NCBI GenBank assembly: GCA_043808095.1
Contig: JAZDFF010000011.1
Coordinates: forward strand, 48,030-112,029
Source: Candidatus Omnitrophota bacterium
Lineage (GTDB): Bacteria > Omnitrophota > Gorgyraeia > JAZDFF01
Reading direction: 5' to 3'
DNA: 64,000 nt
The position numbers and the translations under genes are program-made. Positions 1,841 through 57,142 of the stretch are shown piece after piece. The notes beneath the pieces were generated by a model. It searched no databases, had not been told where the DNA came from, and saw only the letters and a list, made by a program, of their open reading frames with translations. Numbering within the stretch: the first letter of the stretch is position 1; every line of letters begins with the position of its first letter.

Positions 1841-1955
1841 ATTTAATGAGTAGATAATTTATGCCATACAACCTACGTCACTTTGTTCCGAAAGTTACGG
1901 CTTCATTTAATTCTACTGCTAAAATCTTAAATAAACAATTTAAATTTTTTAACAC

Positions 1956-3095: not shown

Positions 3096-3818
3096 TTAAA
3101 CCTTCTTTTCTTTGATGTCCCTGGCAAGAATTAAGGCCTCGGCTACCTCGCGCATGGATTTACGGCTGTCCATGCTTTGTTTTTGAATCAGCCGATATGC
3201 CTCTGATGGCAGAATATTTGCTTCCTGAGAAAGAATATCCTTTGCCCGTTCGATGAGTTTGCGGGTGGTGAGCGCCTCTTCGGCGCTGCGAACCTTTAAA
3301 TCCAATTCCGCGTTCTCAATAGCCACCGCTGCCTGATTAGCTAAGGCACTTAATAGACCCAATTCATGTTTAGTAAATTTATGTTTTTTAGAAGTATAGC
3401 AATTAAGCACACCTATGACCCTTCCCTTGACTGCCAAGGGAACACTGGCCAGAGAGCATAGCCTTTCTTTTTTGGCAATATCCCGGTTTAAGTAACGCTC
3501 ATCCTCTCTGACATCCAAGACGCAGATAGGTTTATTATCCCTGGCAACGATACCGGCAATCCCTTCCCCTAATTTTAAGTTCAGCTTTTTATTATAGGCC
3601 TCGGAGATTGACTGGGTAGCTTTTACTACTAACTCTTTTTTTCCCGGATCCAAAAGCATTAAAGAAGAGATCTTGGAATTCATTATCTCGGCGGTGACAT
3701 TAACTACCAGACGTAGTAGTTCTTCTAAATATAGGCCTGAGGTAATCAGATTGGCAATTTTCGAAAGGGCCTCGATCTGTCTCAAATAAACCTGATAACC
3801 CTTTTTTGACTTAGGCAT
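3096..3818 (-). CDS. GAF-ANTAR RNA-binding antitermination regulator
   Basis: 240 aa. An N-terminal GAF domain is followed by a C-terminal ANTAR helix bundle (...AKDILSQEANILPSEAYRLIQKQSMDSRKSMREVAEALI). Confidence 0.7.
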   Translation of the reverse strand: MPKSKKGYQVYLRQIEALSKIANLITSGLYLEELLRLVVNVTAEIMNSKISSLMLLDPGKKELVVKATQSISEAYNKKLNLKLGEGIAGIVARDNKPICVLDVREDERYLNRDIAKKERLCSLASVPLAVKGRVIGVLNCYTSKKHKFTKHELGLLSALANQAAVAIENAELDLKVRSAEEALTTRKLIERAKDILSQEANILPSEAYRLIQKQSMDSRKSMREVAEALILARDIKEKKV

Positions 3819-4107
3819 AAGTAATCCTTAAATTCGAAACAAATCTTTAGAAAACCCTAAACACTAAATTCTTCCCGCACAACTTGTAAAATATAGCGGG
3901 ATCCCGCAAAGCGGGAAAATCCTAAACAAACCTTAAACTCAAATTTTAAAATCCAAAAGCGCCTAACTTAGCTTGGGTTTTAGATTTTGTATTTTAGCCA
4001 TTTTGGGTTTATTTAGAGTTTGGGGTTTCGGATTTAGGGTTTACAATATTGGCTTTGTTGTTTTGGGATTCCATACTTCGTGCTTCGGATTTAGGGTTTA
4101 AATTAAC
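3819..4107. repeat. low-complexity intergenic region with inverted CCCTAAA/TTTAGGG words and a GCGGGATCCCGCAAAGCGGG hairpin
   Basis: Two copies of tcggatttagggttta occur, with inverted aaaaccctaaa and aatcctaaa words. ttcgtgcttcg is shared, as a reverse complement, with 1228-1239. Confidence 0.6.
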
Positions 4108-5439
4108 TTATAGTATCGGCAGGTATTTATCTATCTCGTATTGGGTAACCTGGGCTTTATATTCATCCCATTCCATTTTTTTGTTGCGGATAAAATATGC
4201 AAAAACGAAATCGCCTAATGCCTTTTTTACTAACTCGGATTTCTCGGTTAGTTTTATCGCTTCTAGCAAATCTTCTGGCAATGATTTAATCCTGGCGCGC
4301 TGTCTTTCTTCTTCAGTCATTCTATAAATATTGTCGTTTGCTGGCTCTATTAACGGGTATTTCTTTTCTAAACCCTCCAGTCCTGCGGTTAACATCGCCG
4401 AGAATGCCAGATAAGGATTGCAGGCCGGGTCAGGTGCGCGGTATTCAATACGCGTGGATTTTTCTCTACCGGGCTTATACATGGGAATGCGTATCAGCGC
4501 AGAACGGTTCATCTGTGCCCAGCACAGATACACCGGCGCTTCATATCCTGGAACTAATCTCTTATAGGAATTAACCCATTGGTTAGTCACCGAGGTAATT
4601 TCCGGAGCATGTTTAAGAAGGCCTGATATAAAGAGTTTGGCAATTTTGGAAATATGAAATTTATCTTTCGGATCAAAAAAGGCATTTCTTTTACCCTTAA
4701 AAAGAGACATGTGCGTATGCATTCCCGAGCCGTTTATGCCGAATACGGGCTTGGGCATAAAAGTAGCATGCAGGCCCTTTTGTTGGGCGAACTCCTTGAC
4801 TACAAAACGATAGGTCATGACATTGTCCGCCATAGTAAGTGCATCAGTATAACGCAGGTCTATCTCATGCTGGCTGGAGGCTACTTCATGATGGCTGTAT
4901 TCTACGACTATGCCTAACCCCTCCAGGGCCATAATAGTCTCCTGCCGCACATCCTGGGCAAAATCTAAAGGTGTCAGGTCAAAATATCCGCCCCTGTCCA
5001 AGACGATGGTGTTCTTAGGATTATTAAAATAAAAATATTCCAATTCCGGGCCGACATAATAGGTAAAACCCATCTTTTTTGCGCGCGCCAGGTTCTTTTT
5101 TAATACGTAGCGGGGGTCTCCTTCAAAAGGTTTGCCATCAGGGGTATAGATATCACAAAACATGCGGGCAACGTTACGGCCTTCTTTTGCCTCCCAGGGT
5201 AAAAGGGCAAAGGTATCCGGATCTGGCTTAGCAATCATGTCCGACTCTTCTATGCGGGCAAAACCCTCAATGGATGAGCCGTCAAATCCCATACCGTCTT
5301 CTAACGCCCGGGGCAATTCATCAATAGTCAAATCCAGGCCTTTTAAAAACCCCAATACGTCGGTAAACCAGAGCCGGATGTGTCTTACCTGCTTCTGTTT
5401 TACAATCTTCATTATCTCTTGTTTAGATCTTGAAGCCAT
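4108..5439 (-). CDS. glnA: glutamine synthetase type I
   Basis: 443 aa, with GS beta-grasp and catalytic-domain motifs (GFDGSS, HTHMS, NRSALIR). Confidence 0.9.
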   Translation of the reverse strand: MASRSKQEIMKIVKQKQVRHIRLWFTDVLGFLKGLDLTIDELPRALEDGMGFDGSSIEGFARIEESDMIAKPDPDTFALLPWEAKEGRNVARMFCDIYTPDGKPFEGDPRYVLKKNLARAKKMGFTYYVGPELEYFYFNNPKNTIVLDRGGYFDLTPLDFAQDVRQETIMALEGLGIVVEYSHHEVASSQHEIDLRYTDALTMADNVMTYRFVVKEFAQQKGLHATFMPKPVFGINGSGMHTHMSLFKGKRNAFFDPKDKFHISKIAKLFISGLLKHAPEITSVTNQWVNSYKRLVPGYEAPVYLCWAQMNRSALIRIPMYKPGREKSTRIEYRAPDPACNPYLAFSAMLTAGLEGLEKKYPLIEPANDNIYRMTEEERQRARIKSLPEDLLEAIKLTEKSELVKKALGDFVFAYFIRNKKMEWDEYKAQVTQYEIDKYLPIL

Positions 5440-5650
5440 TTATGCCTCCTTTAATGAGCGCTTGATTTATGGAGCACAAGGTGCGACATAAGTCAATCTT
5501 TTATGAATAGCATCTTTGATTGTGCGAATTGAATCCGCCAATGCTTTGTGGCGGATAGATTTCATTCGATTACAACGGATTTTTTTATTTTACATCAGTA
5601 CGAGTTTAAAGTAAAGCAAATTCCTCTGTTTGAATGGTTCAAATGGCAGG

Positions 5651-6406
5651 TTATCTCTTTTCTTGAGAGGTTAGTCTTTGTTGCAGAAATTCCCTGAACT
5701 CCTGGGGATACTCTATCTTTGCCTTCCCGGCTGAGCATTTATCGATACTTTCGATAATCTTGGGTATCCTCTCATAAGGAATGCTGATCAATAATTTATC
5801 TTTTTCTACATTACAGAGTTTTCTGGCAGTATAGTCATAGAAAGACAAATTAACCTCACCCGTTAGTAATGGATAGATGATACTCAACCGACAGGTCGGG
5901 CCTCCGATCTTAATCTTAGGCATATTGCCGTCTATAAAGGTTGAAAGCGTAAGCAGCCGGCAGGCGCTTTCGGGATTAGAGATAAAGATTACTAATTGCG
6001 GCTTAAATTCGCATTTTTCCATCGGGGAGAGGACAAAATAGGACTTAGAGTTATCGCCAACGTCTTCCATCTGGGAAATGAGCTTATCCAGGGCTTCGTA
6101 TGAACAGAATAACTTTTCTCCTTCAACCACAAACTGCTTTACCATCTGAATGATTTTGGGGTCTTTAAAATCGTAAAAACCCAAATGCCAGCCGGCCCCG
6201 AAACAGGCATTCGTGTCTTTGGCTATCTGAAGGGTCTCGCCTTTTGCGGCATCCAATATTGCCCGGCAGATGCGCAGCCTCTTATTACTATCTTTTAAAA
6301 ACGGTTCTTTCATACAGCTTAAGGCCACCGGGCTATATTCTAAATTAAGCAACTCTTTTAAAATTAATGAAAATTCCTGCCATTGTTTCTGCATAGTTAT
6401 CTCCAT
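5651..6406 (-). CDS. DUF169-like hypothetical protein
   Basis: 251 aa, soluble. Motifs NACFGAGWHLG and GGPTCRLS recall DUF169 (COG2043). The family assignment is from memory only. Confidence 0.4.
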   Translation of the reverse strand: MEITMQKQWQEFSLILKELLNLEYSPVALSCMKEPFLKDSNKRLRICRAILDAAKGETLQIAKDTNACFGAGWHLGFYDFKDPKIIQMVKQFVVEGEKLFCSYEALDKLISQMEDVGDNSKSYFVLSPMEKCEFKPQLVIFISNPESACRLLTLSTFIDGNMPKIKIGGPTCRLSIIYPLLTGEVNLSFYDYTARKLCNVEKDKLLISIPYERIPKIIESIDKCSAGKAKIEYPQEFREFLQQRLTSQEKR

Positions 6407-6500
6407 TAATGAGCAGACGACTTACGGAACGAAAGTGCGACGCCCTATTTCGCTAAAGCTTCCTACTACGCTAAAGCTTCGTAGGACAAGTCGTAGGGCT
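6407..6500 (-). promoter_or_regulatory. conserved structured 5' leader element, copy A (SD-proximal CTCATTAATGGAG plus an ACTTACG/CGTAAGT hairpin)
   Basis: Sense strand reads ...cgtaagtcgtctgctcattaatggagataactATG. It is homologous to 14548-14640 and 33515-33600. Confidence 0.55.
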
Positions 6501-6745
6501 GTTTCCGAGACCTTGGCGAAGGAAAACGTAAGTCGTAGCTCCGACGATACGTCGGAGCGCCTGCGCCTGCCTACTGGCAGGCGAGCATCCATACCGAAAA
6601 ACCGAGCTTCAAAACCTATGTACATAGTTTTGGCGGGTTTATCCCGTTACACCCAGAAAGCCCCGGTCTTAAGACTGGGATAAAATGGCAAATTAAAATT
6701 AACCATAGAAAATCCCCGTCCTTTATTGACAGGGTGTAATGGGGC

Positions 6746-8087: not shown

Positions 8088-8110
8088 GCATTGCCTCCTG
8101 GTATAATCGT

Positions 8111-8222
8111 TTAAGGGTCAGGAAGGGATAGTAGGAATCAGTAAGGGTTAGTAGGGGAGTTTAAAATTTTTAACCTTTCTAACCCTTTCTATCCCCTGCT
8201 ATAACCTACTAACCCCTAAACG
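8111..8222. repeat. ~110-nt G-arm/C-arm palindromic element, copy 1
   Basis: A left arm of GGGWTAG words and a right arm of CTAWCCC words flank a TTTAAAATTTTT centre. A near-identical architecture occurs at 24800-24912. Confidence 0.7.
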
Positions 8223-8255
8223 TACTGTAATTGTTTTATGAAGTTTATAGGATGC

Positions 8256-10907: not shown

Positions 10908-11060
10908 ATCTAACCCTCCCTCAATGAGCCCGCCATTGATGCAGTGGCGGGCGATTTGATCCCGCCCTTTTGGATATATAAAGATTGGGGTTAACAAACC
11001 AAAAGGGCGGGACAAATTCGGACAGCAATTTACGTTCGCTTCGCTTCGTAAATTGCGTCT

Positions 11061-11222
11061 TCATATTATCTTCTCAAACATATCCTTGCTCACACCGCAT
11101 TCAGGACAGACCCAGGTATCCGGCAAATCACTAAAGGCTGTCCCCGCGTTTATGCCATTGTCCGGGTCACCAACCGCAGGGTCATAGATATAACCGCAAA
11201 CTGTGCAACGATATTTTTCCAT
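11061..11222 (-). CDS. rubredoxin (53 aa; below the ORF-track size cut-off)
   Basis: Hand translation gives [53 protein letters not shown], a classic CxxCG...CPxCG rubredoxin. Confidence 0.85.
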
Positions 11223-11389
11223 TGCCTTAACTCTCCTTATTTACGCCTATCTCTTTTTCTTCTTTGCCTTTTTCTTTGGTTTTTTTACTCCGCAGCCACA
11301 GCATCCCATCTCTACACCTCCTCAAATGACCCCCTGCTGTTTCGTTTTGTTTCGCTTGCTTCACAAAACGGAACAAAACGACAGGGGGG

Positions 11390-11640
11390 AATTTGATCCC
11401 GACGTATCGTCGGGGTAAGTGGTTCAACTTCGCTCTGGTTCGACTTTGCTCTGGTTCGACTTTGCTCACCATTCGCCCTGAGCAAGCTCGCCAGAGGCGA
11501 GCGCGTCGAAGGGCTCACCATCCTTCGAATGCATTCGACTACACTCAACATTCGTCCTGAGCTTGTCGAAGGACGAACCATCCTGAGCGCAGTCGAAGGA
11601 TTCGGCCTAATCCCGACGTATCGTCGGGATGGCCTCACTT
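11390..11640. repeat. composite MITE-like element bounded by identical 20-nt palindromes (ATCCCGACGTATCGTCGGG), carrying GTCGAAGG/CCTGAGC repeats
   Basis: The terminal hairpins lie at 11396-11415 and 11610-11630. The interior has duplicated ctctggttcgactttgct and an ~75-nt block whose reverse complement recurs at 31880-31955. The right terminal hairpin encodes the last 7 aa of FprA. Confidence 0.65.
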
Positions 11641-12812
11641 ATCTTCTGGGCAAAATCCTTTCCAAATTCATAACAGCGCTTTAGCTCAACATCATCCGGA
11701 ACATATTTAAAGCTTAATCCGGACTGAGCTAATTCTATTCCCGACTCTTTAAAAATATCCTCGATTTCCTTAACAGCACCACCTGACCAGCCGTAAGAAC
11801 CGAAGGCAGCTGCAATTCTTTTCTGCGGACGCAGGCCCTTTAAAAATTCCAGGAACCCGGCAATAGAGGTGAGCATATCATTATCATGTGTCGATGAGCC
11901 GATGACAAAGCCTTTGGCATCCAACATCTCTTTGATTACCTCAGTGCGATCAGACGTGGCGATGTCAAAAAGTTTTACATCCAATCCCGCAGCTATAATG
12001 CCCTCGGCTATGTATCTAGCCATCTTTTCGGTTGCGCCCCACATCGTCTCATAGACAATTACGGCTTTGGGCTTAGTCTCATTCTTTGCCCACGATACAT
12101 ATGCATTTACAATCTTGGCCGGGTCTTTGCGCCAGATAATCCCGTGGCTGGGTGCGATCATCTTAATAGGGATATTCATCTTCTGCACTTCTTCGATCTT
12201 TTTTAAGACCAGGCTGCTTAACGGCCAAAGGATATTACCATAATATTTTGCCGCCTCATCCATCAGCGCAGCAGAATCTACCTCATCGTCAAATCTCTGG
12301 GAGGTAGCAAAATGCTGGCCAAAGGCGTCATTGGGCAAAAGAATCGCGTCTTCAACCAGATAACTAAACATACTATCCGGCCAATGCAACATAGGTGCCT
12401 CAAGAAAGGTTAAAGTCTTCTTACCTAATTTTAATTTGTCTTTGGTCTTTACAACTTGAAAATCCATATCTAAATAATAATGTTTAAATAAACCCTCTTT
12501 GCACTTTGCTGTGCCAAAGACCTTGGCCTTGGGACACAGTTTCAATATTGCCGGAAGCGCGCCTGAATGGTCTATCTCTACGTGGTTGGCAATGATATAG
12601 TCGATTTTTTCAGGTGCAATAATCTGTCTGATTCTTTCAATCATCTCTTCGGCAAAAGGTCCATAGACAGTATCCACCAAGGCAATCTTGTCATCTACTA
12701 TAAGATAGGCATTATAGGTGGTTCCTCTTTTTGTGGTATAGGTATGCCCATGGAAGTTCCTGACGTTCCAATCAATAGCGCCTACTCAATGAACCTGTTT
12801 ATAAATTTCCAT
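11607..12812 (-). CDS. flavodiiron protein (rubredoxin:oxygen/NO oxidoreductase, FprA) with an in-frame TGA at codon 9
   Basis: A metallo-beta-lactamase-like diiron domain (HVEIDH...) is followed by a flavodoxin domain. The ATG at 12810-12812 is preceded by GAAGGGG. TGA at 12786-12788 replaces the conserved Trp of the YWVGA motif. The ORF track therefore begins at a GTG at 12680. Confidence 0.7.
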
Positions 12813-14310: not shown

Positions 14311-14547
14311 CTATATGGCAATAACCTCTTTAACACTTGGCACTTCTTGTTTAATCAATTTCTCAATGCCCATCTTCAGAGTCATTGAACTCATCGGACA
14401 ACAGCCGCAGGCACCGGTAAGTTTTACCTTTACCGTCCCGTCATCTGTTACCTCAACAAGCTGGACATCCCCGCCATCAGCCGCAAGCATGGGCCTGATC
14501 TTATTTAAGGCTGCCTCTACTTTTTCTTTCATGTTTTCCTCCTTCAA
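14311..14547 (-). CDS. NifU-like (Nfu C-terminal domain) Fe-S cluster protein
   Basis: 78 aa: ...GGDVQLVEVTDDGTVKVKLTGACGCCPMSSMTLK... Confidence 0.8.
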   Translation of the reverse strand: MKEENMKEKVEAALNKIRPMLAADGGDVQLVEVTDDGTVKVKLTGACGCCPMSSMTLKMGIEKLIKQEVPSVKEVIAI

Positions 14548-14640
14548 TGAGTAGACAACTTACGGAGTTCGAAGAACGACGTAAGTTGTAGGACGAAGTC
14601 CGTCTGCGAATTCCTGCCTGCCGGCAGGCAGGGAACCCAG
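14548..14640 (-). promoter_or_regulatory. conserved structured 5' leader element, copy B
   Basis: + strand reads ctccttcaatgagtagacaacttacggagttcgaagaacgacgtaagttgtagg...ccgtctgcgaatt...gcctgccggcaggc. Confidence 0.55.
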
Positions 14641-14794
14641 CACTTATTTTTGTAACTGGGCTTGGGTTCTAAATTTAACTTTAAATTCGAATTAAACTTC
14701 TTTAATTTTAACCTAGCAAATTTTCAAAAATAAGTGCTGGGTAAATTCGGTCATAAAACTTACGTTTACTTCGTTCCGTAAGTTTTGACCTCAT

Positions 14795-15346
14795 TTAAAT
14801 ATGATGCGCTACAAACTCCGCCAAAATGACGATATCTTCGGTGCAAAAAATATCCTTGATGCTTTTATCAAAAAGGATGTTGGCTTCAGGCCCGAATTCC
14901 GCATCGGCCCTATATAAGGTAATCAAAACCGCAACTCCCTCAAAGACATCTAAAACCACGCTAACATCGGCCAGTTGGACTCTCTTAGCAGAAAAACGCT
15001 CGGTTAATTCTAAGAGTCCGTCAATATTTGATCCGTATTTCTTTAATATCGGCTCGATTACCCTTTGTCGAAAAGCGGGATAATAGCCCTGCCCACCTTC
15101 TAATTGTTTAAAAGAAATCCACTCGCCCTGGACCTGGGGTAATCCTTTGAGCTTACGAGCCAGATAATGCAGTATAAGAATACTTAAATAGGTCTTTGCC
15201 GGGATATTGCAGGATAAAGAGAGGGCCTCTCTTTTTTCTAAATCGACGGTGTATTCGTCAGTCAAAAATTTAACCGCATAAATTTTTTCTTCTGCAATCC
15301 CTGCTAAATCTTCCCAGGCACCGGAAAGCGCAACTTCATAAGCCAT
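14795..15346 (-). CDS. hypothetical protein (possibly DUF3786-like)
   Basis: 183 aa, soluble. No motif could be assigned securely. Confidence 0.3.
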   Translation of the reverse strand: MAYEVALSGAWEDLAGIAEEKIYAVKFLTDEYTVDLEKREALSLSCNIPAKTYLSILILHYLARKLKGLPQVQGEWISFKQLEGGQGYYPAFRQRVIEPILKKYGSNIDGLLELTERFSAKRVQLADVSVVLDVFEGVAVLITLYRADAEFGPEANILFDKSIKDIFCTEDIVILAEFVAHHI

Positions 15347-15888: not shown

Positions 15889-16284
15889 CTATAATAAAGA
15901 CCCTACGCTGATACTTCGCAATTCCCTAACCACATATTTTTCGATTTTATTTATTTTTCTTCTTAAGGCGCAGGTTCTGGTATTAGGGCAAACAATCTTT
16001 TTTAGGAAACACTCGTTTAATTTAAACGGCCCCTGGAATATCTCTAATAAATCCATGATTAAAATTTTGTCGGCTGGGATATTAAGCGAAAACCCACCGC
16101 CTAATCCTTTATACGATTCAAGAACGCCTTTCTTATTTAGTACCTGAAGGATCTTTCTCAAAAACGGATTAGGTATTTTAAGGGCCTTGACTAATTGCCT
16201 GACCGAAACGACTTTATTTTTTGACTTGGCAAGATAGCAAAGAGCCCTGATTGCATAATCGGTATCTCTGGTTATTAATTTCAC
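15889..16284 (-). CDS. Rrf2-family transcriptional regulator (IscR-like, three Cys ligands)
   Basis: The N-terminus is a wHTH. KGLGGGFSL matches the Rrf2 hallmark, and CPNTRTC supplies cluster ligands. Confidence 0.8.
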   Translation of the reverse strand: MKLITRDTDYAIRALCYLAKSKNKVVSVRQLVKALKIPNPFLRKILQVLNKKGVLESYKGLGGGFSLNIPADKILIMDLLEIFQGPFKLNECFLKKIVCPNTRTCALRRKINKIEKYVVRELRSISVGSLL

Positions 16285-21616: not shown

Positions 21617-21702
21617 TTGAAGACTCCTTCAATGAGCACATAAATTACGCCTGTCTGGCCTCAGACAGGGACTTTTGCGCCTTTGCGGTATAAAAAAAGT
21701 AT

Positions 21703-24763: not shown

Positions 24764-24799
24764 CTGCCTCCAAATCTTTTCAAAAATCGTAATAGTTCA

Positions 24800-24912
24800 T
24801 TTAAGGGTTAGGAAGGGGTAGTATGGGTTAGAAAGGGATAGTGGGGGAGTTTTTTAAAATCCCCCCTACTTACCCCTGCTGACCCTTCCTGTCCCTTGCT
24901 ATCCCCTAAACG
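24800..24912. repeat. ~110-nt G-arm/C-arm palindromic element, copy 2
   Basis: tttaagggttaggaaggggtagtatgggttagaaagggatagtgggggag TTTTTTAAAA tcccccctacttacccctgctgacccttcctgtcccttgctatcccctaaacg. Confidence 0.7.
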
Positions 24913-24935
24913 TCTTTTCTTTGAAGTTAGCGGTT

Positions 24936-27569: not shown

Positions 27570-27656
27570 CTTAACCTCCGATTTGCTGTATTTTTTCTTC
27601 TGTCTGCAAATCGTCCCGAGTCCCGACGTAACGTCGGGACGAGGGACAATTATACC

Positions 27657-31771: not shown

Positions 31772-31859
31772 ATTTATTTTGGTTTGTGGAGCCCACCTTA
31801 ATGTTTATTTTATAAGGCCCCCTCCCGAGGCAACGCAGCATTCAGCCCCGGGTTCCCCC

Positions 31860-31975
31860 TCGACTTGGCTCTGGATGGTTCGCGAGAGATGGTGAGTCCT
31901 TCGACGCGCTCGCCTTTGGCGAGCTTGCTCAGGGCGAATGGTGAGCAAAGTCGAACCAGAGCACCGCCGAACTAA
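31860..31975. repeat. inverted partial copy of the MITE-like element
   Basis: gatggtgagtccttcgacgcgctcgcctttggcgagcttgctcagggcgaatggtgagcaaagtcgaaccagagc is the reverse complement of 11445-11520, with 2-3 mismatches. Confidence 0.75.
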
Positions 31976-32094
31976 AACCCGTGGAAATCTGCCGAGGGAT
32001 TAGAAATGGTTTAAGGTATTACACGGTATTATAGCAGAAATTTTTATCTTGATAAGAAGTTTGTTTTGGCGGGAATTAATTCTGCGGCAACTTG

Positions 32095-33514: not shown

Positions 33515-33600
33515 ATTTCCCTCCTTTTAATGAGCAGACGACTTACGGAGTCGAAGACGACGTAAGTCGTAGGCCTAAAAGGCCGTCTGCGAATTAATCC
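33515..33600 (-). promoter_or_regulatory. conserved structured 5' leader element, copy C
   Basis: + strand reads ccctccttttaatgagcagacgacttacggagtcgaagacgacgtaagtcgtaggcctaaaaggccgtctgcgaatt. Confidence 0.55.
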
Positions 33601-33724
33601 CGAAGCCTGCGCAGAAAATTTCTTGCGAAATTTTCAAGCGTTTTGGCGAGGGATCTCAAGGTTAACTTATAACCTTATTTATTATATCACAATTTTACAG
33701 CAATTTTCAGGGCTTATTGATTTT

Positions 33725-55656: not shown

Positions 55657-56628
55657 TTACAAAATATCCTTTTCTTCTATTATCTTCATCTCAACAATTT
55701 CGTCCATTCCTTTTACCAACGCTGTCGCTTTTTCTTTTCCTAAGACAAAAATGGCGGTACTCATCGCATCCGCTGCAGTTGTGGTATCAGCTACGATAGT
55801 TACAGAAACAATCCCATTATCAACCGGATAGCCTGTTTTAGGATTTATGATATGGCTGTAACGTTTCCCGTTAAGCATAAAAAATTGCTCGTAGTCACCT
55901 GATGTGGCTACTGCCTGGTTTTCAAGATCCAAAGGATAGAGTATCTGGCCAGGATTGCGTGGATGACGTATGGCCACTCGCCATTTACGGTTTCCTCTCC
56001 TGCCCAAACAGTAGATATCACCGCTTAAGTTTACCATTGCCGAGGTTATTCCCAAAGACTTAAGACGGCCGACGGCTTTATCGACTGCGTATCCCTGAGC
56101 AATTCCTCCCAAGTCAATTGCCATACCTGGCTGCATAAACGTAATCAAAGATGTTGTTTCATCAATTGAAATTTTTTCCGAGCCAATGAGCGGCAACTTT
56201 GCGTAGATATCATGAGAAGGAGGCAACGATACTTGCGTTTTTTCCTCCTGCGCCTCTTTGATTTTTTGTTTCCATATATCAGCCACGGGACTAACGGTAA
56301 TATCAAATGCATCGTTACTGAGCTTGTGGTATTTAAGCGAATTTTTCACCAGGGCCATCATATCGCCTGATGCCTTGAGGGTTCCCATTCTGTTCAGTTG
56401 CGATATTTCTGATGAGGGGTCAAAATTACTGGCTATTGCCTCGATCTTGCTTATCTCCTCAAACGCAGCATTAATTGCGTCTTTATCCTGGCAGGTAATT
56501 TCTGCAAACGTCCCCATTACAATACGAGTCTCTGTATAGTAAGGTCTGGAACAACCGAATAATCCAAACCACAGGACCAAGAGAATCGAAATCCTAAAAA
56601 AGAAACATCGGAAACTATTAATCCTCAT
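55657..56628 (-). CDS. apbE: FAD:protein FMN transferase (ApbE-family lipoprotein)
   Basis: A lipobox-like LFGC is followed by ...RIVMGTFAEI (the MGT motif) and an ApbE fold. Confidence 0.75.
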   Translation of the reverse strand: MRINSFRCFFFRISILLVLWFGLFGCSRPYYTETRIVMGTFAEITCQDKDAINAAFEEISKIEAIASNFDPSSEISQLNRMGTLKASGDMMALVKNSLKYHKLSNDAFDITVSPVADIWKQKIKEAQEEKTQVSLPPSHDIYAKLPLIGSEKISIDETTSLITFMQPGMAIDLGGIAQGYAVDKAVGRLKSLGITSAMVNLSGDIYCLGRRGNRKWRVAIRHPRNPGQILYPLDLENQAVATSGDYEQFFMLNGKRYSHIINPKTGYPVDNGIVSVTIVADTTTAADAMSTAIFVLGKEKATALVKGMDEIVEMKIIEEKDIL

Positions 56629-56849: not shown

Positions 56850-56854
56850 TGTGT

Positions 56855-56980
56855 TCTCTCTACTGGCCTACGAGGTTAGCTGTCGGGCTCGGGTCGAGCA
56901 ACCCTAATCTGATATTACTAGATATTCGCCCCAAGATCACAACTTGATCAGATTCTTGGGTTCCCCGCTATCTTTTTAGG
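56855..56980 (-). promoter_or_regulatory. cyclic-di-AMP (ydaO/kimA-type) riboswitch in the kdp leader
   Basis: Minus strand reads ...gcGGGGAACCcaag...CGACCCGAGCCCGACAGCTAACCTCGTAGGCcagt. This matches the conserved ACCCGACAGCUAACCUCGUA 3' signature of the ydaO class. Confidence 0.65.
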
Positions 56981-57142
56981 TTTGAAATATCACCCAAAAA
57001 GAGATTAAGCTTATTGAAATTAAATATAGCGCAATTAATCCTTTTGTCAAGTTTGATCACTCGCTAGTTAAGCAAGATGTTCACGCTCAAAACGCCCTGA
57101 AGTGACTCACCATAAAATACTCTCTCTAAACAGGCAGGACAA

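Follow-up and report, generated by a model that had tools for sequence, protein, structure and literature searches.

Palindromic modules docked on the starts and stops of genes across the candidate phylum Omnitrophota

Introduction

Why should one structured sequence recur directly in front of the start codons of separate genes? The question is raised by a stretch of 64,000 nucleotides, referred to below as the window, from a metagenome-assembled genome (MAG) of a Candidatus Omnitrophota bacterium (assembly GCA_043808095.1, contig JAZDFF010000011.1, positions 48,030 to 112,029 of the forward strand), in which a first-pass annotation had noticed three copies, here called A, B and C, of such an element. 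The Omnitrophota are very small, uncultivated bacteria that may depend on hosts, and we know of no account of how gene expression is organized among them. The three copies belong to one interspersed, structure-conserved family of palindromic modules that is restricted to, and widespread in, this candidate phylum. The modules dock on gene boundaries, where they are commonly assembled into composites of three hairpins with differentiated arms, and they are gained and lost at individual junctions. What they might do there, and whether they do it as RNA or as DNA, is weighed against several alternatives below.

Three copies of one hairpin

Copies A, B and C all lie on the minus strand, each directly 5' of the start codon of a separate gene: the ATG at 6394 of a DUF169 gene, that at 14532 of a NifU-like gene, and that at 33516 of a gene for a 96-aa Met-rich protein. 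Pfam agrees with the names of the DUF169, NifU, GlnA, rubrerythrin and Thi4 genes of the window and assigns no family to the Met-rich protein. The 19-mer CGTAAGTCGTCTGCTCATT is matched three times in the window, both at two or fewer mismatches and when three are allowed, where 100 shuffles give an expectation of 0.00, and the pattern CTCATT-N1-6-GGAG occurs six times, in all six cases on the minus strand and just 5' of an ATG. Both nested stems form in the predicted folds of copy C (-30.1 kcal/mol, z = -3.4) and copy B (-35.2 kcal/mol, z = -3.0); in copy A the same outer stem encloses an insertion of about 105 nt (z = -0.9). Between B and C both stems carry compensatory changes, ACAACTTACG/CGTAAGTTGT against ACGACTTACG/CGTAAGTCGT in one and GGAC/GTCC against GGCC/GGCC in the other. 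Coordinates, shuffles and folding thus bear out the original view of a recurrent structured element with nested stems in front of three minus-strand genes.

Structure and covariation of the module

Each module folds into an imperfect hairpin some 60-75 nt long. An alignment (A1) of 85 copies of the simple class has the consensus GGGRT-W-AAT-TC-G-NN-C-(2-3 nt)-NNN-ACTTACG-(10-16 nt)-CGTAAGT-NNN-G-NN-C-TC-ATT-W-A. Its base is a helix, P0 (WAAU/AUUW), followed by a conserved UC/UC internal loop formed by AAUUCG…CUCAUU, a second helix, P1, of 4 bp, a 5' bulge of 2-3 nt or an inserted hairpin, and a third helix, P2, of 10 bp (NNN+ACUUACG / CGUAAGU+NNN), which is closed by a variable tip. The Shine-Dalgarno sequence (SD) lies outside the conserved module. 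In this structure standard pairs occupy 94.9% of the 1,698 cells of the 85 copies, and the pairs 7-66, 14-59, 15-58, 20-56, 21-55 and 22-54 each occur as several pair types, with no more than 7% unpaired. Changes on both sides of a pair fill 213 cells, against 74.5 ± 5.7 in shuffles, none of 500 of which reach 213; when the partner is slid by 1-3 columns, pairing comes to 19.5-41%. The covariation proposed earlier as a check on the element is therefore abundant once relatives are included, and it rests on dispersed copies rather than on orthologues of the window leaders, as the orthologous DUF169 and DUF3786 loci carry no modules. Three tRNA-adjacent copies in the collected loci of relatives (L005, L079 and L090; L numbers denote such loci throughout) look orthologous and differ by three compensated pairs.

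Several variants depart from the simple class. In 28 matches, copies A-C of the window included, an extra hairpin stands at the bulge (GCAGAC-hairpin-CTAC) and gives a three-way junction. A second subtype, type II, reads AAGTTCG…CTCACTT, so that P0 gains a G-C pair; its P2 is A(A/C)(G/T)TTATG / CATAA…, and its tip is often AT-rich and enlarged. The skeleton of P0, loop and P1 can also persist with the inner hairpin swapped, as it does in the window at 10920-10964, 11322-11400 and 11592-11642. Bulge-helix-bulge and kink-turn geometries were considered and set aside, as their loop positions do not fit.

Distribution and novelty

The pattern ACTTACG-N10-16-CGTAAGT-N6-CTCATT, with 20 specified bases, was scanned against the species-representative genomes of GTDB (596 Gb). 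It is found at no fewer than 119 loci in about 95 assemblies, nearly all of them labeled Omnitrophota or Omnitrophica, with a few bearing automated labels of the Planctomycetia type. By our own uniform-composition estimate, with 20 bases and seven gap lengths in 596 Gb, some 8 matches are expected by chance, and the match in Mucilaginibacter (L116) looks like one of these. Features that the pattern does not force are conserved as well, namely AATTCG at a fixed 7-8 nt upstream in 87 of 123 matches, the preceding GGGRT, and complementary variable bases. In the 0.73 Mb of collected loci a covariance model finds 162 matches.

The family appears to be new. No Rfam family matches the modules: at the gathering threshold of Rfam 15 the whole window yields a cyclic di-AMP riboswitch, elsewhere than the modules, and nothing else, and a permissive search of 14480-14860 returned miRNA-type hairpin noise only. 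No description was found in the literature on repeats, palindromes and RNA motifs of Omnitrophota or Omnitrophica, including genomics papers and a survey of 224 candidate structured RNAs. The modules offer a handle for studying how the transcripts of these bacteria are bounded, processed or stabilized, and the covariance model could serve as a taxonomic marker for Omnitrophota contigs. One module with an identical 45-nt flank was seen both at a contig end (L029 4117-4178) and at a contig start (L066 80-142) of the same MAG; modules probably break assemblies.

Docking on gene boundaries

In 77 of the 123 pattern matches a start codon lies downstream on the same strand. The distance from CTCATT to the start is bimodal, being either 1-6 nt with no SD (about 28 of the 77) or 11-20 nt with a GGAGG (about 42). 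Eighteen of the 123 abut the stop of a convergent gene, mostly as CTCAT-TTA (TAA-ATGAG on the gene strand), and the number of copies inverted on stop codons is put at 17-34. About six copies lie directly against the 3' end of a tRNA encoded on the opposite strand, and in L114 a tRNA begins 3 nt after CTCATT. Such regularity should aid gene callers, which may expect starts 1-6 or 11-20 nt after CTCATT and stops within TAA-ATGAG. Judged by N-terminal sequence or length, from which genes beside the modules of relatives were named without a Pfam scan, the genes downstream seem to be housekeeping genes that are unrelated to one another, such as groEL, infA, ribosomal protein genes, accC, ilvD and hisH.

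This distribution bears on the first idea that the locus suggests, a gene-specific cis-regulatory RNA (a thermometer, riboswitch or small-RNA target) that masks the ribosome-binding region of a small regulon. The structure is real, the hairpin adjoins the SD, and several neighbors in the window are redox or Fe-S genes. As to the earlier proposal that the stems sequester the sequence at the SD, in the predicted fold of copy B part of GGAGG pairs with the inserted hairpin, whereas in that of copy C the structure stops 1-3 nt 5' of GGAGG and leaves the SD unpaired, and in the family P0 ends just 5' of the SD or start codon. Against regulation of a few operons stand the absence of an SD from about a third of start-side copies (some 28 of 77), the presence of the same element at stop codons and tRNA ends, the unrelated housekeeping genes downstream of it in about 95 genomes, the lack of a module at the DUF169 and NifU orthologues of relatives, and a rod-shaped hairpin with no conserved core resembling a ligand pocket. 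The notion of an RNA thermometer or riboregulator target is hardly credible in this light. Extended pairing of CUCAUU with the anti-SD was also rejected, as its spacing to GGAGG ranges from 0 to 5 nt.

The modules often come in pairs. Covariance model R1 finds, at distances of up to 300 nt, 29 head-to-head pairs with AATTCG ends facing, 6-256 nt apart, and no tail-to-tail pairs among the partner copies; of the pairs that were classified, 17 are stop/start, one is start/start and none is stop/stop. The usual composite reads gene 1 STOP, inverted arm, GC-rich central hairpin, arm, (SD) START gene 2, and fills the whole intergenic region between co-directional genes, the central hairpin CCC…GGGRT joining the arms with no linker nucleotides. 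Families of central hairpins are common to different MAGs, among them ACACCAATT…AATTGGTGT, TGACATTTT…AAAATGTCA and ATAGCTACGAGAAAATTT…. The centers are as short as 6-8 nt at two junctions: in L044 a 101-aa gene is followed by a 545-aa gene beginning MAKQLLF…, probably groES and groEL, and in L106 a 161-aa gene is followed by MFSKILIANRGEIA, probably accB and accC. A further junction, in L037, precedes hisH, named in the same way. With such short centers inside likely operons, composites are intercistronic and must be co-transcribed there. The minimum-free-energy folds predicted for 12 composites are mostly three separate hairpins, so that a four-way junction in which AAUGAG of the left arm meets CUCAUU of the right arm is not favored; pairing of the left arm with the right was rejected too, since P1 and P2 differ between arms.

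A position between genes would suit a signal in the DNA for transcription itself: a promoter, in which TAAGTN, say, is the -10 and transcription begins close to CTCATT, so that mRNAs are short or leaderless; a factor-dependent terminator that works in both directions; or the two combined. The ATG follows CTCATT by 1-6 nt in about a third of start arms, and the tRNA of L114 is as close; few modules have a recognizable promoter upstream (8 of 146 within 250 nt); UWAAUU follows the GC-rich central hairpin; and canonical terminators number 22 in the window against 20.5 expected, so that another termination signal may be in use. A promoter, however, leaves the covariation of P0, P1 and P2 unexplained, the loop of 10-16 nt would make the spacing of the hexamers variable, column 54 is T in just 67% of copies, no -35 or TG motif is present, and real promoters in these genomes resemble TTG…TGnTATAAT. 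There is no U-tract, composites lie inside the likely groES-groEL and accB-accC operons, and none lies between convergent genes, where bidirectional terminators would be expected. We regard a DNA-level transcription signal as improbable.

More specific signals fared no better. Modules are followed by CCC… or by WA and the SD, and central hairpins by RUWAAUU, which is not the form of an intrinsic terminator; inside modules no sigma-70 promoter (-35 and -10 at 16-18 nt spacing) is matched; and in both cases consensus scans did not rise above shuffles. A -10 reading of TWAATT or TAAGTN was rejected, as columns 7 and 66 covary and T is so often absent from column 54. Also discarded were a sigma-54 reading of TCGCAC-N5-TTCC (by eye, no GG/GC being present) and the likeness of GCUCAUUAA to boxA (GCUCUUUAA), since its G and C are part of the variable P1 and inverted copies of the element also occur at stops. 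The promoters that can be recognized combine an extended -10 (TTGTGGTATAAT or TGATATAAT) with a weak -35 box (L120, L122, L123, L124 ~2400-2450; window 33681-33689), and those of L120 and L122-L124 directly follow a GC hairpin with a T-run.

Gain, loss and copying

The persistence of the modules can be followed at junctions that relatives share. Four DUF169 orthologue loci have a plain TTGTGGTATAAT promoter in place of the module. Five DUF3786 loci of relatives (34.6 kb, including 20.5 kb of one large contig) gave no module at E <= 1 with filters off, and the DUF3786-NifU junction of L125 is 54 nt long and has none. Copies are thus gained and lost at individual junctions, as REP (repetitive extragenic palindromic) sequences and BIMEs (bacterial interspersed mosaic elements) are in enterobacteria. 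Local duplication is one source of copies: in L018 (4500-4774) the central hairpin and module are tandemly triplicated with a period of 92 nt, in L028 (6601-6820) they are duplicated at 157 nt, and in L005 (1375-1560) a segment of about 150 nt is bounded by an 18-nt repeat of the 5' end of a tRNA. Near-identical copies, linker included, are also found at two loci of one MAG (L051 and L110). At the variable stem positions the identity of copies is 0.537 inside one assembly and 0.492 when assemblies are compared, a difference that 6 of 500 permutations reach, and most of the excess is due to local tandem duplicates. Diversity so nearly equal within and between genomes is unlike a recent burst of copying; the copies are old and individually kept.

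These observations lead to the possibility that the element is a selfish or domesticated single-stranded DNA hairpin repeat, in the style of REPs and REPINs (REP doublets forming hairpins) with their RAYTs (REP-associated tyrosine transposases), or of the IS200/IS605-derived PATEs (palindrome-associated transposable elements), with no function for the host. A transposase of the HUH/Y1 kind would recognize and cut the hairpin and its AATTCG and CTCATT flanks, conservation would reflect the needs of that enzyme, and the position at boundaries merely where a compact genome tolerates insertions. The presence and absence at orthologous junctions, the tandem duplications, the near-identical copies at separate loci of one MAG, the pairing of two subtypes in inverted orientation around a linker, a trait of BIMEs, and a module end that has stop codons in two frames are all in keeping with it. 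Against it, a weak test by tblastn with approximate queries for IS200 TnpA and E. coli RayT gave, in about 0.8 Mb of loci, only a spurious IS200 match in a Dus gene; the open reading frames (ORFs) that separate widely spaced modules facing inward in L012 and L036 were, judged by eye, not transposases; no consistent target-site duplication was seen among the pairs inspected; and within-genome copies are about as diverse as those of different genomes, unlike REPIN populations. On balance we hold such a repeat, free of host function, to be rather unlikely. If the modules are only a REP-like parasite, they are still an unusually old and conserved one. The original description had also entertained a mobile leader cassette that supplies a promoter and ribosome-binding site; a dispersed cassette comes near the truth, the supply of these signals does not, the SD being outside the module and the visible promoter upstream of it.

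Polarity of the arms and a possible role in RNA

The two arms of a composite are not equivalent. Of 63 start arms 2 have the G-C form of P0, as against 10 of 33 stop arms (Fisher p = 3e-4). Modules that the seed pattern missed keep the canonical CTCATT in about 10 of 14 cases at starts, but in 2 of 19 at stops. On the strand read at stop sites tandem G·A loops replace U·C, and in 80 of 85 copies this strand folds better by 3.5 kcal/mol; the weak base of the start arm is made up wholly of A-U pairs and stops just 5' of the SD. That the subtype of an arm depends on whether its neighbor is a start or a stop would not be predicted for a parasite blind to transcription. Two further points suit a role tied to transcription: the consensus extended -10 site upstream of module C, and the composites with centers of 6-8 nt inside likely operons.

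The reading that we prefer, tentatively and short of calling it probable, is that of a REP/BIME-like element that marks cistron boundaries, is transcribed with its neighbors, and serves in the RNA as punctuation between cistrons. The composite would be read into RNA together with the flanking genes and would do its work there. Its stop-side arm, read as AAUGAG…CGAAUU, would supply a stable 3' hairpin to the upstream cistron, possibly as a barrier to 3' exonucleases or as a site of partial termination, and its start-side arm, read as AAUUCG…CUCAUU, would give the downstream cistron a defined and insulated leader that leaves the SD or AUG accessible, and may double as a processing site. Besides duplication, some further copy mechanism would have contributed to its spread. 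It should be added that the competing readings overlap, REP elements being both mobile and functional.

Several observations weigh against a role in RNA. Real RNA helices usually tolerate G·U far better than A·C, yet G·U and A·C stand at 16:12 at starts and at 10:11 at stops. There being no G·U excess, selection for the structure could act on DNA or on both strands; used as a test of which strand matters, this comparison shows no asymmetry. The pyrimidine-rich tip and the preference for TTCG over CGAA (35:4 overall) follow the orientation of the module, not that of transcription, and the composite has a two-fold symmetry of the kind expected at the ends of a transposable element. The equal counts and the module-bound asymmetry are again what a single-stranded DNA repeat could show. 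Genes, moreover, manage without the module in relatives, and any host function is therefore non-essential. Lastly, the near-invariant ACTTACG/CGTAAGT, AATTCG and CTCATT call for a sequence-specific partner across the phylum, and the question raised is which factor holds a 7-bp helix and two loops invariant over such a range.

One answer, a sharper form of the reading preferred above, would be a phylum-specific global RNA-binding protein or endoribonuclease that recognizes ACUUACG/CGUAAGU together with the UC/UC loop, and whose sites would serve the genome-wide processing of polycistronic transcripts. It would account for helix and loop sequences that are near-invariant across the phylum amid free variation elsewhere, for the exact docking at starts and stops, for the SD-less starts directly after the module, where cleavage would yield near-leaderless mRNAs, and for the retention of the P0/UC/P1 skeleton when the inner hairpin is swapped. 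On the other side, modules are dispensable at orthologous junctions, and no preference for G·U is seen; we think a site of this kind quite unlikely. The bolder combination, a phylum-wide RNA punctuation in which differentiated stop and start hairpins are cut by a specific factor, for example a hairpin-specific endoribonuclease, is a speculation that we consider quite doubtful. If true, the cuts made by the factor would leave every cistron with a hairpin that protects its 3' end and with a 5' end that is short or nearly leaderless; in function the system would resemble mitochondrial tRNA punctuation or processing of the Cas6/Csy4 type.

Comparison with known elements

By our comparison the closest known system is that of REP and BIME; the element behaves like a BIME, and membership is not claimed. 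Both comprise many extragenic copies per genome, at positions that are transcribed (here probably so), some of them between genes of one operon (here 10 copies in 34 kb of the window, and 162 in 0.73 Mb). Both are short imperfect palindromes with a polarity conferred by mismatches, both place two subtypes in inverted pairs around families of linkers (Y and Z REPs in BIMEs, type I with type II here), and both keep their stems by compensatory change, turn over between relatives and have a stop codon near the hairpin. The Omnitrophota module differs in being about twice as long, with three helices, and in having the conserved flanks AATTCG and CTCATT in place of a GTAG; its ends are fused to stop and start codons with a precision of 0-6 nt, and its arms are of different subtypes. 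No RAYT was detected in about 0.8 Mb of loci (by the weak tblastn test with approximate queries). REP sequences tend to differ between species or genera, whereas the Omnitrophota motifs are common to about 95 species-level assemblies of one phylum. The homogeneity within genomes that marks REPIN populations is not seen either, as the identities of 0.537 and 0.492 indicate.

Other families resemble the module in part. ERIC sequences (enterobacterial repetitive intergenic consensus, also called intergenic repeat units, IRU) and the Correia elements of Neisseria are long imperfect palindromes co-transcribed with their neighbors, as the present module is inferred to be; those elements alter the stability or processing of mRNA, and orientation-dependent effects would be expected of all of them; with ERIC it also shares a sequence conserved beyond one species. 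Its unit, however, is three separate hairpins rather than one foldback of 127-155 bp, and its taxonomic range is different. The outer ends of the composite are inverted (AATGAG…CTCATT), as in Correia elements and other miniature inverted-repeat transposable elements (MITEs), but the trinucleotides that flank the arms do not match, the W base covaries within the module (pair 7-66), and the terminal inverted repeat with TA duplication of Correia elements is lacking.

Like the RNase III sites of phage T7 early mRNA and the stabilizing hairpins of other transcripts (ompA 5', REP 3'), the modules are conserved, irregular intercistronic hairpins with internal loops; as at the T7 sites, the downstream cistron starts a few nucleotides past the foot of the hairpin, and the upstream product would retain a 3' hairpin. 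The present elements differ from these in being chromosomal and phylum-wide and in having an invariant 7-bp helix that RNase III does not need. As in the module, the folded strand of an integron attC site has a helix at its base, then an unpaired central spacer and a second helix, one strand of which carries extrahelical bases, and it ends in a variable tip (10 to >100 nt); both adjoin a gene start. The RYYYAAC and GTTRRRY boxes are absent, though, the copies form inverted pairs rather than direct arrays, and their neighbors look like core genes (groEL, accC, tRNAs); an integrase was not seen, no search having been aimed at integrases.

The copies of the window

In the window the covariance-model search finds 10 modules on both strands, all between 1.8 and 33.6 kb, and none in the second half (34000-64000), where there are nonetheless many intergenic regions of 100-500 nt. 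The region in which they cluster is one of redox, nitrogen and Fe-S genes. The copies noticed at first were minus-strand leaders; further copies lie on the plus strand at 14737-14798, 11008-11069, 1850-1910 and 11592-11642. Two junctions are built as composites, that of a rubredoxin-like and the rubrerythrin gene (11069-10920) and that of a DUF3786 gene and the NifU-like gene (14798-14544).

Copy C (33527..33597, minus strand) is a start-side module of type I, with AATTCG at 33595-33590 and CTCATT at 33534-33529, and scores 46.2 and 67.2 bits in two model searches. A small hairpin, GGCC-TTTTA-GGCC, sits at its bulge, and CTCATT is followed by AA, AGGAGG and the ATG at 33516. Upstream of it a central hairpin read from the sequence (33597..33654, minus strand), ATCCC…GGGAT around GCCAAAACGCTTGAAAATTT…AAATTTTCTGCGCAGGC, belongs to a linker family also present in L002, L017 and L078. 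Copy C thus consists of a central hairpin and start arm only, downstream of an extended -10 promoter-like site, TGATATAAT (33681..33689, minus strand), which is a consensus match about 80 nt (distance 78) upstream of the module. If this site is used, module C lies inside a 5' untranslated region. A motif of the type TGGTATAAT, like this extended -10, lies upstream of the DUF169 orthologues.

Copy B (14544..14613, minus strand), the start-side module before the NifU-like gene, has AATTCG at 14612-14607, CTCATT at 14551-14546 and a hairpin GGAC-TTC-GTCC at the bulge, and scores 47.2 bits. It is abutted by a GC hairpin, CCTGCCTGCC/GGCAGGCAGG (14614..14633, minus strand), a sub-module that recurs in copy A, L069, L080 and L098. 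The central region of this composite (14636..14736) is an 18-bp inverted repeat, ACCCAGCACTTATTTTTG / CAAAAATAAGTGCTGGGT, around an AT-rich loop of about 65 nt that holds TTGCTA-17-TTTAAT. Its stop-side arm (14737..14798, plus strand) is the best copy of the window (72.5 and 74.8 bits), and its CTCAT-TTA end overlaps the TAA stop of the minus-strand DUF3786 gene at 14795-14797.

Copy A (6406..6564, minus strand), the leader of the DUF169 gene, is aberrant, matching model positions 11-57 at 22.5 bits. It comprises P1 GCAGGCG, an inserted hairpin CTCCGACG-TAT-CGTCGGAG, P2 ACGACTTACG (6536-6527), the insertion of about 105 nt in the tip, and then CGTAAGTCGTCTGCTCATT (6426-6408) with CTCATT at 6413-6408; AATTCG is missing. 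The insertions and the preserved stem had been recognized at the outset, and the span is corrected from 6407-6500 to about 6564-6406.

The shorter versions reported before glnA, rubrerythrin and thi4 turn out to be of three kinds. The glnA leader (5450..5537, minus strand) holds a full though diverged module (46.9 bits, E = 1.3e-9) with a compensatory P2, GACTTATG / CATAAATC, and an insertion at the bulge. That of rubrerythrin (10920..10964, minus strand; 24.9 and 22.1 bits) is truncated, keeping P0, the UC loop and P1 (ATCAAATCGCCCGCC…GGCGGGCTCATTGA) with P2 replaced; beside it lie the central hairpin CCCGCCCTTTTGG…CCAAAAGGGCGGG (10965..11007, minus strand) and then a stop-side arm (11008..11069, plus strand; 47.4 and 54.9 bits) after the rubredoxin-like ORF, whose TGA stop lies within AATATGAAG. 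The thi4 leader (21620..21690, minus strand) keeps only the 3' half of the module (CGTAATTTATGTGCTCATTGAAGGAG), which pairs with GCGCAAAAGT around a GC hairpin; it folds at -25.7 kcal/mol (z = -2.8) and is below the threshold of the covariance model.

Among the remaining copies, a start-side skeleton at 11322..11400 (minus strand, 22.2 bits) reads AAATTCCCCCC…GGGGGTCATTTGA with a different inner hairpin, before a 20-codon Cys/Lys-rich ORF. A weak, type II-like stop-side skeleton at 11592..11642 (plus strand; 18.2 bits, E = 0.039) follows a flavodiiron-type gene as TAA and GTGAGGCC…GGCCGAAT, its inner hairpin replaced by TCCCGACG-ATA-CGTCGGGA. A diverged arm lies at 1850-1910 (plus strand; 23 and 25.1 bits), and the region 1841..1910 also holds on the minus strand an adjoining remnant, CTACTCATTAAAT-ATG, before the ORF 1568-1840.

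Other features of the window

Downstream of the start-side skeleton, the 20-codon Cys/Lys-rich micro-ORF MGCCGCGVKKPKKKAKKKKR (11247-11309, minus strand) has an SD of its own, and a similar one, MSCGRCGTKKKKKKRK, is found in the spacer between a Pyr_redox and a NifU gene of another Omnitrophota genome (L127 ~16095-16145); it may encode a conserved small protein. Directly downstream of glnA (4108-5439) lies a gene with GAF and ANTAR domains, the latter an RNA-binding antiterminator (3096-3818, minus strand), and the glnA region might be under ANTAR control as well, separately from the module. The cyclic di-AMP riboswitch, of the ydaO/yuaA type (56851-57021, minus strand), scores 71.8 bits against a gathering threshold of 38 and lies upstream of a gene ending at 56628.

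Other repeats share the intergenic space. A second family, of large imperfect palindromes (ACGTTTAGGGG…TAGCAGGGGATAG… / …CCCTTAAACG), fills the intergenic regions 8090-8250 and 24770-24935, and a third (AAACCCTAAATCCGAAAC… and its inverse) is found at 3830-4100 and in an unrelated Omnitrophota contig (L123 2330-2480). GC-rich repeats (…CCTTCGAC…GCTCAGG… and TCCCGACG-ATA-CGTCGGGA) recur in the intergenic regions 11400-11640 and 31850-32010, and a small CCCGACGTATCGTCGGG hairpin occurs both within copy A and at 27616-27639.

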